Positions 14,907 to 19,362 of a DNA stretch of 64,000 bases are shown piece after piece. Source of the DNA: Candidatus Marinacidobacterales bacterium (GTDB lineage: Bacteria; Acidobacteriota; Vicinamibacteria; Marinacidobacterales; SMYC01); NCBI GenBank assembly GCA_965224085.1, contig CBDCYI010000005.1, positions 896,001-960,000 on the forward strand, written 5' to 3'. Each line of letters starts with the position of its first letter. The first letter of the stretch is position 1. Both the position numbers and the translations under genes were made by a program. The notes below the pieces were generated by a model. The model saw only the letters and a list, made by a program, of their open reading frames with translations. It was not told the DNA's origin and made no database searches.

Positions 14907-15398
14907 TTATTCTAACGCAACGGGCCGATCACGTTCCGTCAGGTTAACTACAATGGCGCGCGCGGCGCGGACTAGATTCTGCGGCGTGATCAAAATCTCT
15001 TGTCCCCAAACGCCGGCACCGACCCCGAGAAGGGGCTCCTCCATCAATGCTCCATCCACAAAGGAACGGAAGCCCGTCGGCTGCCAATGAAACGGTGGCA
15101 CAGACCCGATTTTGTACCCCGTGACTTCCTCGACCACCTCGGGACGAGCCATCTTGATGTTCCGATCGCCGATGGCTTTCTTCAGATTTCCCGACACGGC
15201 GCTGCGGTCACCGCCCACCATGACGAGGACGCGCTCGCTCGTGCCCGATTCGAAGACCAAAGTCTTGACCATCTGGTGCTCGCGAAACCCGAGCACGCGG
15301 GCCACGTTGGCGGCACCTTTGTCCGTCGTATCGGGAAACGCGCGCGTCTCGTAAGCGATCGCTTGTTCGTCCAAATGGATATGGGCTGGGAGCCTCAT
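14907..15398 (-). CDS. ybaK: YbaK/EbsC aminoacyl-tRNA deacylase
   Basis: QMVKTLV, TGYKIGSVPPF, VGAG motifs. Confidence 0.8.
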   Translation of the reverse strand: MRLPAHIHLDEQAIAYETRAFPDTTDKGAANVARVLGFREHQMVKTLVFESGTSERVLVMVGGDRSAVSGNLKKAIGDRNIKMARPEVVEEVTGYKIGSVPPFHWQPTGFRSFVDGALMEEPLLGVGAGVWGQEILITPQNLVRAARAIVVNLTERDRPVALE

Positions 15399-15453
15399 GG
15401 GGAAAGGGTATCAGGCAATCAGCCTTCAGGGTGCTCAGGCGGTGTGGTTTTGC

Positions 15454-15482
15454 TTGACACGCAGGCCGGCCGGCGTTAACTT
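15454..15482 (+). promoter_or_regulatory. Sigma70-type promoter of the met leader/operon
   Basis: TTGACA-17 bp-TAACTT. Confidence 0.7.
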
Positions 15483-15507
15483 CAAGTTGTCTATTGGAGA
15501 TCAGGTT

Positions 15508-15591
15508 TTGAGATTGGCTAGGTTCCACCGAATGTCGATGCCCGGCATGTTTATGCGCAGGCCGGGCAGCGCGCGTCGGCGGAGCGGATAA
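15508..15591 (+). CDS. Putative Met-rich attenuator leader peptide, MRLARFHRMSMPGMFMRRPGSARRRSG
   Basis: GGAGA at 15496-15500, TTG 15508, four ATG codons within 8 codons (15532, 15538, 15547, 15553), stop 15591; precedes Met-pathway genes. Confidence 0.7.
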   Translation: MRLARFHRMSMPGMFMRRPGSARRRSG

Positions 15592-15619
15592 CTACTTCTC
15601 GGCACTTCTCCTCTGGCGT

Positions 15620-15668
15620 CGCACCGCCCGGCTGTCCCCGCTGACACCGTCCGGTGCGCTTTTTGTTT
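15620..15668 (+). terminator. Attenuator terminator hairpin
   Basis: CGCACCG..CGG.TGTC-loop-GACA.CCG..CGGTGCG then CTTTTTGTTT, about 30 nt before the next ATG. Confidence 0.7.
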
Positions 15669-15697
15669 CTAGACGTCATTTCCAGAGGAGATCCACG

Positions 15698-16456
15698 ATG
15701 TTCTATCCTTGTTTGGCTTCGGCCAATCTTCCCATCACCGTTCTCAAGTTTGGCGGCTCGGTCCTAGCGGGACCGGATGCACTGAGTGATGTCGTATCGG
15801 AGATCGAACGCACGGTTCGCCGTGGGCATCGCGTCGTCGCGGTCACGTCCGCCTTTGCGGGGGTTACTTCGCGGCTTCTCAAAAAAGCTCAGGAACGCTT
15901 TCGGGCGCCCGCGGAAAAATCGCTTGCGGGTCTTCTCGCCACAGGGGAGTCCCGCTCTGCGGCGTTTGTTTCCCTCGCCCTCGACGACGCCGGTATCCGG
16001 AACGAGCTGCTCGACCCGGATCGCATCAAGCTTCGCGTGCGCGGCGCTTGGCTCGACGCGGAGCCTATCGACGTCGACTTGGGCGCACTCGAAAAGGCGC
16101 TCATCGGGGCTCCTGTCATCGTCCTTCCGGGATACTTTGGACGCCGACGTGATGGCTCCCATGCCCTTCTCGGTCGAGGTGGCTCCGATCTCACGGCGCT
16201 ATTTCTCGCCGAGCGGCTCGGGGCTCGCGACTGCCGGCTCATCAAGGATGTCGACGGACTGTTCAATCGAGATCCAGCCACCGGCGGCGACGAGCTTCAA
16301 GCATTCACGGTCGCGAGCTTTCTGGAGCTTTCTGCGCTCGGCGGCGGACTCGTGCAGGCTAAAGCCATCGATTTCGCAAAAGCCCATGGGCTCGAGTTCA
16401 CGATCGCAACCCTTGCCTCGGATAGAGGGACGCTCATTGGCCCGGTGCGCTCGTGA
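15698..16456 (+). CDS. Aspartate kinase-like amino acid kinase (no ACT domains)
   Basis: VLKFGGSVL, LGRGGSDLTA, KDVDGLFNRDP. Confidence 0.85.
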   Translation: MFYPCLASANLPITVLKFGGSVLAGPDALSDVVSEIERTVRRGHRVVAVTSAFAGVTSRLLKKAQERFRAPAEKSLAGLLATGESRSAAFVSLALDDAGIRNELLDPDRIKLRVRGAWLDAEPIDVDLGALEKALIGAPVIVLPGYFGRRRDGSHALLGRGGSDLTALFLAERLGARDCRLIKDVDGLFNRDPATGGDELQAFTVASFLELSALGGGLVQAKAIDFAKAHGLEFTIATLASDRGTLIGPVRS

Positions 16457-17652
16457 GACGCCAGACCGAATATTTGCAATACGAGTCTTCGCCGGGAGAT
16501 CCACACCGCCCGAGTGCGACGCCTCTTTACCAAACGGCGACGTTCCGCCTCCAGGATGGCGCCGAGTTCGACTACTCCCGCTCCGGGAACCCGACGCGAT
16601 CGGTCGTCGAGGAGCAGCTTGCGGCCATCGAAAGGGGCACCGCGGGCTTCGCGTTTTCGAGCGGCATGGCAGCCCTCGATGCGGTGTGCTCGCTCGTCTC
16701 CGCCGGCGAAGAGATTGTCGCCTGTGTGGACTTGTATGGTGGTACATACCGGCTGCTATCCCACGTCGTCGCGCGGCGCGGGGTGCGGGTGCGTTTCGTG
16801 AACACGTCGGACGATTCGGTTCTCGTCGAAGCGCTCGAAAGAGCGCCCCGGCTCGTTCTCGTCGAAACGCCCACGAATCCTCTTCAGAGCGTAACCGATC
16901 TGTATCGATTGTCCGAGCTCGCGCGCGCACGTGGAAGCCTCGTTGCTGTCGACAACTCCTTGATGTCAGCCTATCTTCAAACACCGCTTCAATGTGGCGC
17001 GCATCTCGTGATCCACTCAGCGACGAAGTTTCTCAACGGGCATAGCGATGTGACCGCGGGCGCCGTGGTTACGAGCGACGCGGAGCTCGCGGAGAAAGTC
17101 CGCTTTCACCAAAACGCTACAGGGACCGCGCTCGCGCCATTCGAAGCCTGGCTTCTCGCGCGCGGCATGAAGACGCTCGCCCTCCGCCTCGACCGCCAGC
17201 AACGCAATGCCGAAGTGCTAGCTCGCTACCTGAGAGATCATGAAGCGGTGACCCGCGTTCACTATATCGGCCTCCCGGACCACCCCGGACGCGAGACCCA
17301 CAATCGCCAATCGCTCGGCCCCGGAGCCGTCATCGCGGTCGAGACGGGCTCGCTCGAGCGCTCCTTGGCTCTCGTCGAAGAAGCAAAGCTGTTCGACGTT
17401 ACCGTCAGCTTCGGCGGTGTGCGGTCGACGTTGAGCCTTCCCGCGAGGATGTCGCATGCGAGCATTCCCGAAGAAGTCCGCTCGAGGCGGCAATTCCCTG
17501 AAGATCTCATCAGGCTATCGATCGGGATCGAGCACCTCGAAGATCTTCGCGGCGACCTTTCTCGCGCACTCGATCGCGCGCTCGCCGCGTCGGAGCTTTT
17601 GGTTCGAAACGAGAACTCGCGGCTCGTATCCCGTGCTCGTGCACGTCGATAG
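16453..17652 (+). CDS. Cys/Met metabolism PLP enzyme (cystathionine gamma-synthase / beta-lyase)
   Basis: YSRSGNPTR, FSSGMAA, ETPTNP, HSATKFLNGHSD. Confidence 0.92.
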   Translation: MRRQTEYLQYESSPGDPHRPSATPLYQTATFRLQDGAEFDYSRSGNPTRSVVEEQLAAIERGTAGFAFSSGMAALDAVCSLVSAGEEIVACVDLYGGTYRLLSHVVARRGVRVRFVNTSDDSVLVEALERAPRLVLVETPTNPLQSVTDLYRLSELARARGSLVAVDNSLMSAYLQTPLQCGAHLVIHSATKFLNGHSDVTAGAVVTSDAELAEKVRFHQNATGTALAPFEAWLLARGMKTLALRLDRQQRNAEVLARYLRDHEAVTRVHYIGLPDHPGRETHNRQSLGPGAVIAVETGSLERSLALVEEAKLFDVTVSFGGVRSTLSLPARMSHASIPEEVRSRRQFPEDLIRLSIGIEHLEDLRGDLSRALDRALAASELLVRNENSRLVSRARARR

Positions 17653-18503: not shown

Positions 18504-19362
18504 GGTACTGAACACGAATTCGAGTCACTCCCCGGTCCGCCCGCACGGGCGGTGCCATTGCTGTCAAATTGAGCTGGTGACTGACAGAATGGTCCAATGA
18601 AGACCGATGCGCCAAGCTACCACGGCTATCGATTTCCACCGGAAATCATCAGCCACGCCGTCTGGCTCTACCACCGATTCTGCGTGAGCTTTCGAAACGT
18701 CGAAGAGCTGCTTGCTCAGCGAGGCATCACGGTTTCCTACGAAGCGATCCGACTTTGGTGCATCAAGTTCGGGCCGGAATACGCTCGGCGACTGAAGCGT
18801 CGGCAGGGTCGCCTTGGTGACACGTGGCACCTGGACGAGGTCTTCATAAAGATACAAGGCGAACGCCAATACCTCTGGCGCGCGGTAGACCAAGATGGTG
18901 ATGTGATTGATATCCTCGTCCAGCCTCGCCGTGATCAGAAAGCCGCCAAACGATTCTTCCGCAAGCTGTTGAAAGGGCAAGGCCGTCCGCCCTGGCAGCT
19001 GGTCACCGACAAACTGAGAAGCTACAGCGCCGCTCACCGCGAGGTCATGCCGTCCGTCGTCCACGACACTGACCAGTACAGAAACAACCTAGCCGAAGTC
19101 TCGCACGAACCGACGCGACAACGGGAACGACAGATGCGGAAGTTTAAAACTCCTTGGCAGGCGCAACGATTCTTGACCGTGCATGGACTCGTGCAAAACC
19201 TCTTTCGCGTCGGACGGCATTTGTTGCAAGCGCATCATCATCGGGAGCTACGAGACCGCGCTTTCATCGTCTGGCAGGAGGTAACCTGTGCCGTCCGATG
19301 AGAGCAAAGGAAATCAGCTCGACGCAATAGGTTCGCTCGCTCAACGTCAACTTGACAATACC
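18504..19362 (+). mobile_element. IS6 family element, copy 1
   Basis: Ends GGTACTG.. and ..TCAACTTGACAATACC; abuts the target 8-mer at 18496-18503. Confidence 0.88.
18597..19301 (+). CDS. IS6 family DDE transposase
   Basis: RFPPEII, WHLDEVF, YLWRAVD, VTDKL, NNLAEVSH. Confidence 0.95.
   Translation: MKTDAPSYHGYRFPPEIISHAVWLYHRFCVSFRNVEELLAQRGITVSYEAIRLWCIKFGPEYARRLKRRQGRLGDTWHLDEVFIKIQGERQYLWRAVDQDGDVIDILVQPRRDQKAAKRFFRKLLKGQGRPPWQLVTDKLRSYSAAHREVMPSVVHDTDQYRNNLAEVSHEPTRQRERQMRKFKTPWQAQRFLTVHGLVQNLFRVGRHLLQAHHHRELRDRAFIVWQEVTCAVR

Follow-up and report, generated by a model that had tools for sequence, protein, structure and literature searches.

Transcription attenuation by a translated leader peptide is textbook material for the trp, his, thr, leu, phe and ilv operons (enterobacterial trpL, hisL, thrL, leuL and pheL), and bacterial control of methionine is taught in terms of S-adenosylmethionine (SAM) riboswitches, T-boxes and repressors such as MetJ. 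Met specificity in leader control of the textbook type is barely documented. Here we describe a leader within a stretch of 64,000 nucleotides (nt) from Candidatus Marinacidobacterales bacterium (GenBank assembly GCA_965224085.1, contig CBDCYI010000005.1, positions 896,001 to 960,000 of the forward strand), hereafter the window, in which a short open reading frame (ORF) rich in Met codons precedes genes for an aspartokinase-like enzyme and a pyridoxal phosphate (PLP) enzyme of Cys/Met metabolism. The leader is a real, conserved element and, on comparative and thermodynamic grounds, very probably an attenuator of the classical kind that senses methionine, placed on a Met-branch aspartokinase without allosteric domains.

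Our literature search, with subscription-only papers and supplements outside its scope, found no description of this leader family and no Met attenuator besides one annotation in Streptomyces lividans TK24. The polycysteine attenuators of mycobacteria reportedly act by a mechanism other than a terminator/antiterminator switch. Like the locus described here they place codons for a sulfur amino acid upstream of the operon genes that they control; unlike it, according to the parts of the report drawn on here, they use Cys and not Met codons, lie on leaderless mRNAs and belong to a different phylum (bioRxiv 10.1101/834739). The S. lividans "metL" leader, situated before metNIQ, was called from RNA sequencing, with termination unclear and a typical terminator missing, in the corresponding parts of its report (PMC8079986). 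It too is a proposed Met-dependent leader peptide with several Met codons ahead of a methionine-related operon, but it is leaderless, 29 amino acids (aa) long and mixed in its Cys, Met and Thr codons, and it controls an importer instead of a biosynthetic operon. Within the same parts of the source it stands at annotation level, without a comparative or functional test (PMC8079986), and it bears no sequence likeness to the leader in the window. The initial annotation of the window, made from its letters alone, had known of no well-characterised Met-only attenuator; this was a fair statement, to be qualified by the annotation-level S. lividans entry already in print (PMC8079986). A survey from 2010, as far as the portion used here extends, states that leader-peptide systems had until then been shown only in Proteobacteria and Actinobacteria, and adds a His leader in Firmicutes (PMC2965389). 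For Actinobacteria, a study from 2005 reports, in the portion used, no RNA element before methionine operons (PMC1262725).

The locus shares with the classical attenuators a short, apparently translated ORF rich in codons for the end product, mutually exclusive antiterminator and terminator hairpins, an antiterminator arm that a stalled ribosome would free, and an intrinsic terminator before the first structural gene. It differs from them in its sensing codon, AUG, which is the single codon of its amino acid and also serves initiation, and in an extra helix predicted to sequester the Shine-Dalgarno (SD) sequence of the downstream gene. Further differences are that the pairing of regions 1 and 2, the protector, is not conserved, that there is no sequence or Rfam relationship to the classical leaders, and that the hosts are non-proteobacterial, among them metagenome-assembled genomes (MAGs) labelled Acidobacteriaceae, Planctomycetota and Isosphaeraceae.

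The promoter, SD sequence, TTG-started ORF, Met cluster, GC-rich heptamers and terminator that the initial annotation had read were each found where it had placed them (Table 1), and we confirm that observation as real. The four Met codons (ATG at 15532-34, 15538-40, 15547-49 and 15553-55) fall within eight codons. Three GC-rich segments are legible in the sequence, namely TGCCCGGC at 15539-46 (region 1), GCCGGGC(A) at 15561-67(68) (region 2) and GCCCGGC at 15626-32, in the 5' arm of the terminator. In all nine related leaders compared the -35 TTGAC is kept, along with a TAnnnT-like hexamer. A consensus promoter scan of the window did not call the leader promoter, because its rule wants at least four of six matches in the second hexamer and TAACTT has three to TATAAT. 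All leaders of family f1 carry GGAG or AGGAG 6-10 nt ahead of a conserved TTG, and the leader SD of G060, L031 and L034 is either weak or hard to make out.

Table 1. Coordinates of the leader elements and operon genes in the window (position 1 is its first nucleotide).
Feature	Position	Strand	Details
Promoter	15454-15482	+	-35 TTGACA 15454-15459, 17-nt spacer, -10 TAACTT 15477-15482; read from sequence
Leader SD, GGAGA	15496-15500	+	GGAG 8 nt before TTG start at 15508
Leader ORF	15508-15591	+	TTG start, 27 codons plus TAA (15589-15591); peptide LRLARFHRMSMPGMFMRRPGSARRRSG
Protector hairpin	15539-15568	+	region 1 (15539-46) with region 2 (15561-68); -20.5 kcal/mol; lineage-specific
Extended antiterminator hairpin	15559-15634	+	-39.8 kcal/mol; core CCGGGC/GCCCGG is the RNAalifold consensus
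Intrinsic terminator	15620-15668	+	stem 15620-15658, -21.0 kcal/mol; U-tract TTTTTGTTT 15660-68; conserved in relatives
Outer helix	15607-15691	+	anti-SD 15607-15620 with 15672-15691; encloses terminator, contains kinase SD GGAG 15687-90
Aspartokinase-like gene	15698-16456	+	252 aa, without ACT domains; Pfam AA_kinase 1.9e-30
Cys/Met-metabolism PLP enzyme gene	16453-17652	+	399 aa; Pfam PF01053 (Cys_Met_Meta_PP) 1.8e-123; 4-nt overlap with kinase gene

A protein search of 61 related genomes recovered orthologues of the kinase in seven further genomes of the same family, and the leader is present in all seven. Leaders of the same layout stand before orthologous genes in three genomes of the window's genus (G002, G003, G004) and in the f1 genera G009, G010 and G013/G016, as well as in G060, from another family of the class, where the gene behind the leader encodes a 591-aa aspartokinase-homoserine dehydrogenase fusion. 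A covariance model built from 11 leaders and searched in 151 genomes of the class matched ten of them, once each: eight f1 genomes with the operon (G000 included), a remnant in G001, and G060. None of the statements made here depends on the unpublished genome G027. Scans of named genomes and metagenome contigs added 160 further loci, at which kinase identity is at most 50% except in L121 (62%) and L150 (54%). Many of these have the reversed gene order, in which the kinase follows a metY-like PLP gene, and Met-rich leaders also precede that first PLP gene at L031, L034, L037, L065, L121, L139 and L150. The leader peptide reads MRLLIHSRMFMAMCAPGG... in L031 (a MAG labelled Acidobacteriaceae), ...RMMMDMPRPG... 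in L034 (Planctomycetota), ...MMMFMDMHMPGPG... in L037 (Isosphaeraceae) and ...MMTSHMVMPRPG... in the metagenome locus L121; L065 (Planctomycetota) has fewer Met codons, and the leader of the metagenome locus L150 is cut at its 5' end. Between positions 460 and 800 of the metagenome locus L139, tandem Met-rich leaders (VKRMSFMTMEMPRMMCGGCLVMD, then ...KSMSMPRPG...) precede the PLP gene, the first of them with a terminator of its own after it. Overall a terminator is seen in 9 of the 11 leaders. The initial reading implied that the Met cluster would be conserved, and cluster, reading frame, terminator and the pairing of region 2 with region 3 are all kept in relatives.

Two of the helices call for amendment. 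The protector proposed initially is present in the window, but its 8-base-pair form is intact in just three of the four leaders of the window's genus and we do not count it as conserved core for that reason; outside the genus it is partial or built differently. The GCCGGGC/GCCCGGC antiterminator pairing does hold in relatives, although the hairpin around it is longer than had been described: region 2 and the 3' part of the ORF (15560-15584) pair with the anti-SD segment and the 5' arm of the terminator (15608-15633).

The use of Met codons in these leaders is far from that of ordinary genes. Start codons excluded, ATG triplets in the 11 leader ORFs number 50 in frame against 2 out of frame (four and none in the window's own leader), and Met accounts for 50 of 296 residues (16.9%), compared with 1.58% in genome ORFs of at least 300 aa. 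The gaps within the ORF across family f1 measure 3, 6, 12 or 15 nt, all multiples of three, so that the frame is preserved. The number and spacing of Met residues differ by lineage (MSMPGMFM, MCSMYM, MMTSHMVM, MMMFMDMHM), which fits selection on codons and not a fixed RNA pocket, and the cluster always stops just ahead of the antiterminator arm. Within the window's genome (6.87 Mb, 60% G+C), at least four ATG codons in eight occur in 127 clusters among 13.7 million six-frame scanning windows. When a Met cluster was sought together with a following hairpin and T-tract, 37 candidates were returned genome-wide, and by inspection this leader is the only one with a short leader ORF. Crude counts of Met clusters over whole loci, 29 on the plus and 31 on the minus strand, did not discriminate; only clusters in 5' leaders are meaningful.

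No known RNA family accounts for the leader region, and the SAM riboswitch that the initial annotation had wished to see excluded is not among the matches. Rfam 15 at gathering score gave no match in the 64-kb window, and at an E-value of at most 0.01 no leader was matched at any of 17 related loci, 11 Met-type leader loci included. In E-value mode over 15350-15750 the sole match was to RsmY (E = 0.2), which we treated as noise. The runs of window and leader likewise gave no match to a T-box, whose model we take to be among the library families searched, or to Thr_leader, His_leader, Trp_leader, Leu_leader and similar Rfam leader families. Across the whole genome the SAM-I, SAM-II and SAM-I/IV models found no match, with positive controls that worked only for SAM-I.

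The leader folds more stably than chance would suggest. For the whole leader (-86.5 kcal/mol, z = -2.76) 2 of 200 shuffled sequences were as stable, and for the terminator region (z = -2.11) 5 of 200; a terminator-like site that a scan of the window had called at 15639-15656 is part of the larger hairpin. The energies in Table 1 indicate that the "off" pair of hairpins, protector and terminator, is nearly balanced against the single "on" hairpin. The RNAalifold consensus of the leader alignment is the pairing of region 2 with region 3. This complementarity was also assessed sequence by sequence, the 24 nt after the last Met codon being paired with the 5' arm of the terminator and compared with 500 shuffles for each of nine leaders; 19, 3, 7, 3, 53, 9, 0, 0 and 10 shuffles, respectively, reached the observed duplex energy. 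Where the sequence diverges the complementarity is kept, and it spans 14 base pairs in L034 and 12 in L031.

When a ribosome is simulated in the folding, the result points to a switch that depends on position. In nine leaders the stretch from -15 to +9 nt around the first base of the A-site codon was held unpaired, either in RNA ending at the terminator stem or in RNA cut before the 3' arm, as a mimic of the moment of decision. In the longer RNA, the probability of the terminator, P(terminator), is at least 0.96 without a ribosome in seven of the nine. Eight leaders have one or more Met codons in the cluster at which, when the A site is placed there, this probability is no more than 0.21; just past the cluster the value in the same eight is high again. 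In the cut RNA the 5' arm of the terminator is paired upstream with a probability of 0.6-0.99 while the ribosome sits on the earlier Met codons, short of the final one or two in the cluster, and this declines to 0.15-0.52 once the ribosome stands 1-4 codons past the last Met, in all nine leaders. A 12-nt ribosome edge produces the same drop with an onset one codon earlier. These folds therefore suggest a conserved geometry, in which the last Met codons lie at the edge of the positions that leave region 2 free. The alternative structures proposed at the outset thus find support in the model, in which the antiterminator arm stays free as long as the ribosome is on the Met cluster and is covered once the ribosome stands 1-4 codons further on.

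The outer helix is an amendment that we make, on the strength of modelled pairing, to the first reading, and it would sequester the downstream SD. It was scored per sequence, a MAFFT alignment not having placed it in register, and it beats shuffles in eight of nine leaders (0 of 500 in five; 6, 7 and 14 in the other three); in the first of the L139 leaders, L139a, it does not (154 of 500). Its flanking sequence differs in each lineage. A further alignment made with a model (A6) was set aside, as it included spurious reverse-strand matches.

Conservation, the lack of an Rfam family and the ribosome-mask folding all favour the Met-sensing leader peptide of the initial annotation, and we consider it likely that the element is a ribosome-mediated transcription attenuator of the trp/his type with Met as its sensing codon. 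Sequence and computation give us the elements, their conservation, the bias in codon use and, in silico, a switch that depends on ribosome position; from these we infer that ribosomes stall at AUG, that the system responds to methionine, that termination occurs in vivo and what the enzymes do. Transcription would start at about 15489, and a ribosome would begin the leader ORF at its TTG. Were charged elongator Met-tRNA short, the ribosome would stall on the AUG cluster (15532-15555), melting region 1 and leaving region 2 free; region 2 and the 3' part of the ORF could then pair with the anti-SD segment and the 5' arm of the terminator, the terminator would be blocked, and RNA polymerase would continue into the aspartokinase and PLP genes. 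With Met-tRNA plentiful, the ribosome would cover region 2 on its way to the stop codon while regions 3 and 4 are made, so that the terminator could form and transcription presumably end. Transcripts in the terminator fold would, in addition, keep the kinase SD locked in the outer helix. We further infer that the kinase is a Met-branch aspartokinase whose lost allosteric domains have been replaced by control from the leader. A 97-nt metatranscriptomic contig lies on 15515-15583, with loose ends that fit the leader of a relative; it was given no weight as evidence of transcription, because contigs show neither RNA ends nor proof that the region is transcribed.

Leaders of a second codon type precede kinases of the same family. 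Thr-rich leaders occur at 32 of the 160 loci, which are Brevundimonas-type, before an aspartokinase-homoserine dehydrogenase gene (for example ...ITTTGTTTTMPLRAGTG); the arrangement is comparable to thrL-thrA of E. coli, and no Rfam family matches these leaders. The loci are L049, L052, L056-L059, L070-L072, L133, L140, L143, L144, L152, L157-L160, L164-L166, L169, L176, L180, L183-L186, L189, L190, L192 and L193. A strong terminator lies 130-175 nt before the kinase gene, the frame of which spans 558-574 aa in 31 loci and is cut by the contig end in the remaining one. Both types share a CCGCCCGG core in the terminator, and in both a Met-Pro step comes ahead of a GC-rich arm. The layout is that of the Met leader: after the codon cluster of the Thr type stands M-P-x-R-A-G, overlapping an arm complementary to the 5' arm of the terminator (CCGCCCGG). 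They differ in the sensing codons, which are Thr with some Ile and Met, and in the partner gene, which is of the APH family (homoserine-kinase-like) and not a PLP enzyme; L058, for instance, carries between 1128 and 3706 the Thr-rich leader, the fusion gene and then the APH-family gene. A PLP neighbour is found at none of the 32 Thr-type loci, against five of five Met-type loci of the same set. Leader codons thus appear to track pathway context, in an association among loci that are kin and not independent.

Two further observations concern these leaders. A Pro codon comes after the final Met codon ahead of the antiterminator arm in most leaders, Met-type and Thr-type alike, and RNA pairing offers no obvious reason for it. 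True SAM-I riboswitches, with scores of 79-85 bits (cut-off 44.4), are found immediately upstream of the Thr leader in L058 (882-998), L072 (862-985) and L166 (1425-1541), in each case on the minus strand and thus opposite to the leader, and there a SAM-controlled gene and a Thr-attenuated operon accordingly diverge from one intergenic region.

In other phyla the position of the Met leader is occupied by RNAs that resemble SAM riboswitches. Full-length SAM-II-like elements scoring 30-35 bits (cut-off 36) precede the operon of PLP enzyme and kinase at L036 (54-126), L038 (65-136), L041 (97-169) and L068 (78-149), in sequences labelled Pyrinomonadaceae or Acidobacteriota, and SAM-I/IV-like elements, also full-length, scoring 33-35 bits (cut-off 41.1) do so at L033 (63-208), L039 (108-244) and L042 (73-233), labelled Phycisphaerae or Planctomycetaceae. 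These matches are likely to be divergent riboswitch variants that fall under the Rfam thresholds. Such riboswitches (SAM-II, RF00521; SAM-I/IV, RF01725) take the same spot before the operon, are followed by a terminator and presumably serve the same purpose, methionine/SAM feedback; they sense SAM directly in an RNA pocket, whereas the Met leader has no such aptamer. Their occurrence at this spot, like the codon pattern an association among loci that are kin, fits an operon subject to methionine/SAM feedback. Tentatively, and with slightly less than even confidence, we suggest a modular attenuator lineage spread over several phyla that travels with aspartokinases lacking ACT domains and supplies, through ribosome stalling, the feedback which those domains no longer give. 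Its codons may be swapped between Thr and Met with the operon partner (homoserine-kinase-like or Cys/Met PLP enzyme), its slot may elsewhere be taken by SAM riboswitches, and it may act at two levels, terminator and SD.

Several results weigh against the attenuator as we have drawn it. In L003 (g6) the terminator persists at equilibrium at every ribosome position, and in L031 and L034 it is lost also with the ribosome at the stop codon, and in L031 at the last three sense codons as well. With the A site on the last Met codon, P(terminator) is already 0.76-0.99 in six of nine leaders, and only the earlier Met codons are therefore effective in the model. L037 and L065 are without a clear U-tract terminator. 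Stem covariation, which the initial annotation had looked to as support, is upheld in part: per-sequence complementarity is kept, but covariation in the alignment (A3) is weak, with two pairs showing double changes and 25 of 500 shuffles reaching its score, because the core helices are almost invariant. The binomial figure for the frame of ATG is inflated, as the frame was picked by its Met cluster and several leaders are kin; from the sequences compared, the near-lack of out-of-frame ATG nevertheless still stands. On the full leader without a ribosome the SD is paired in all seven leaders folded (P(unpaired) at most 0.08), and of these only the window's own leader has it opened by a ribosome placed on the Met codons (P(unpaired) 0.4-0.6), a difficulty for the translation of read-through transcripts in other lineages. 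Finally, the operon is broken in G003, G010 and G004, where the kinase or PLP gene behind the intact leader is split, frameshifted or truncated (loci L006, L007 and L008), and G001 (locus L120) holds a remnant in which promoter and leader ORF survive while terminator and genes are gone.

This decay would also suit a leader that is now nearly idle, or one that senses the overall capacity for translation, or initiation, with no specificity for methionine supply. The latter draws on the default state of the RNA: in seven of nine leaders without a ribosome, the antiterminator arm has a pairing probability of 0.76-0.91 at the stage when the 3' arm has yet to be made, so that read-through would also follow whenever the leader failed to be translated. 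Yet Met codons are enriched about tenfold and mark precisely the edge of the permissive ribosome positions in nine of nine leaders, and codon identity switches with pathway context; we regard such a leader as improbable, though the least so of the three alternatives considered. Slightly less probable again is that the nascent peptide itself is the sensor, its Met cluster and x-x-Pro-Gly motif (often Met-Pro) stalling the ribosome on free methionine or SAM and driving the same hairpin switch, in the way that TnaC responds to tryptophan and the plant CGS1 exon-1 peptide to SAM. The motif M-x-x-P-G follows the Met cluster in nine of 11 leaders, the Pro and Gly codons of L031 have changed synonymously while their pairing partner changed too, and Met-Pro stands ahead of the switch in Thr-type leaders as well. 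Pro-Gly codons are, however, explained by RNA pairing, since CCGGGC is itself the antiterminator arm. L139a (MPRMMCGGC) and L150 (MPWPD) lack Pro-Gly, no residue beyond the Met cluster and Pro-Gly is common to all 11 peptides, and the polarity is wrong for a biosynthetic operon, in that a stall here under abundant Met or SAM would favour read-through.

The least probable alternative, and a very unlikely one, dispenses with translation altogether and makes the leader an RNA-only switch, either an undescribed riboswitch or a protein-binding leader, with AUGs that are structural and a small ORF that is incidental or untranslated. It is true that nucleotide conservation is high in the AUG-NNU-AUG core and in the CCGGGC/GCCCGG segments and that RNAs like SAM riboswitches occupy the same spot in other phyla. 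Against this, SD and start codon are conserved in family f1, insertions and deletions in the ORF come in multiples of three, ATG is found 50 times in frame and twice out of it, Met number and spacing vary between lineages, a related leader has Thr codons where the operon is of the threonine type, and there is no Rfam match.

If the Met-codon attenuator is borne out, its conservation in several little-studied lineages would mean that the logic of trp and his also serves methionine, and it raises the question of how a stalling sensor copes with an amino acid that is needed for initiation too. The swap of Thr and Met codons on one scaffold would, if true, be a clean natural experiment on how attenuator specificity changes. 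The pairing with aspartokinases that lack ACT domains suggests that translational sensing can take the place of allosteric feedback. The finding would also be of use in annotating small ORFs and operon control in the genomes of uncultured bacteria.

As to the genes downstream, the aspartokinase-like enzyme and the cystathionine synthase/lyase named initially are matched by homology, with NCBIfam scores below cut-offs. The best NCBIfam models for the kinase are aspartate kinases, all under cut-off and covering its catalytic domain only, and relatives of the kinase are fused to homoserine dehydrogenase; the best model for the PLP enzyme is the cystathionine beta-lyase TIGR01329 (454 bits; cut-off 487.5). 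A gene for an IS6/IS240-type DDE transposase (18597-19301, plus strand) follows the PLP gene at a distance of about 0.9 kb. On the upstream side, a gene for a YbaK-like Cys-tRNA(Pro) deacylase (14907-15398, minus strand) and the leader promoter point in opposite directions; 55 nt separate the start of that gene from the -35 hexamer.

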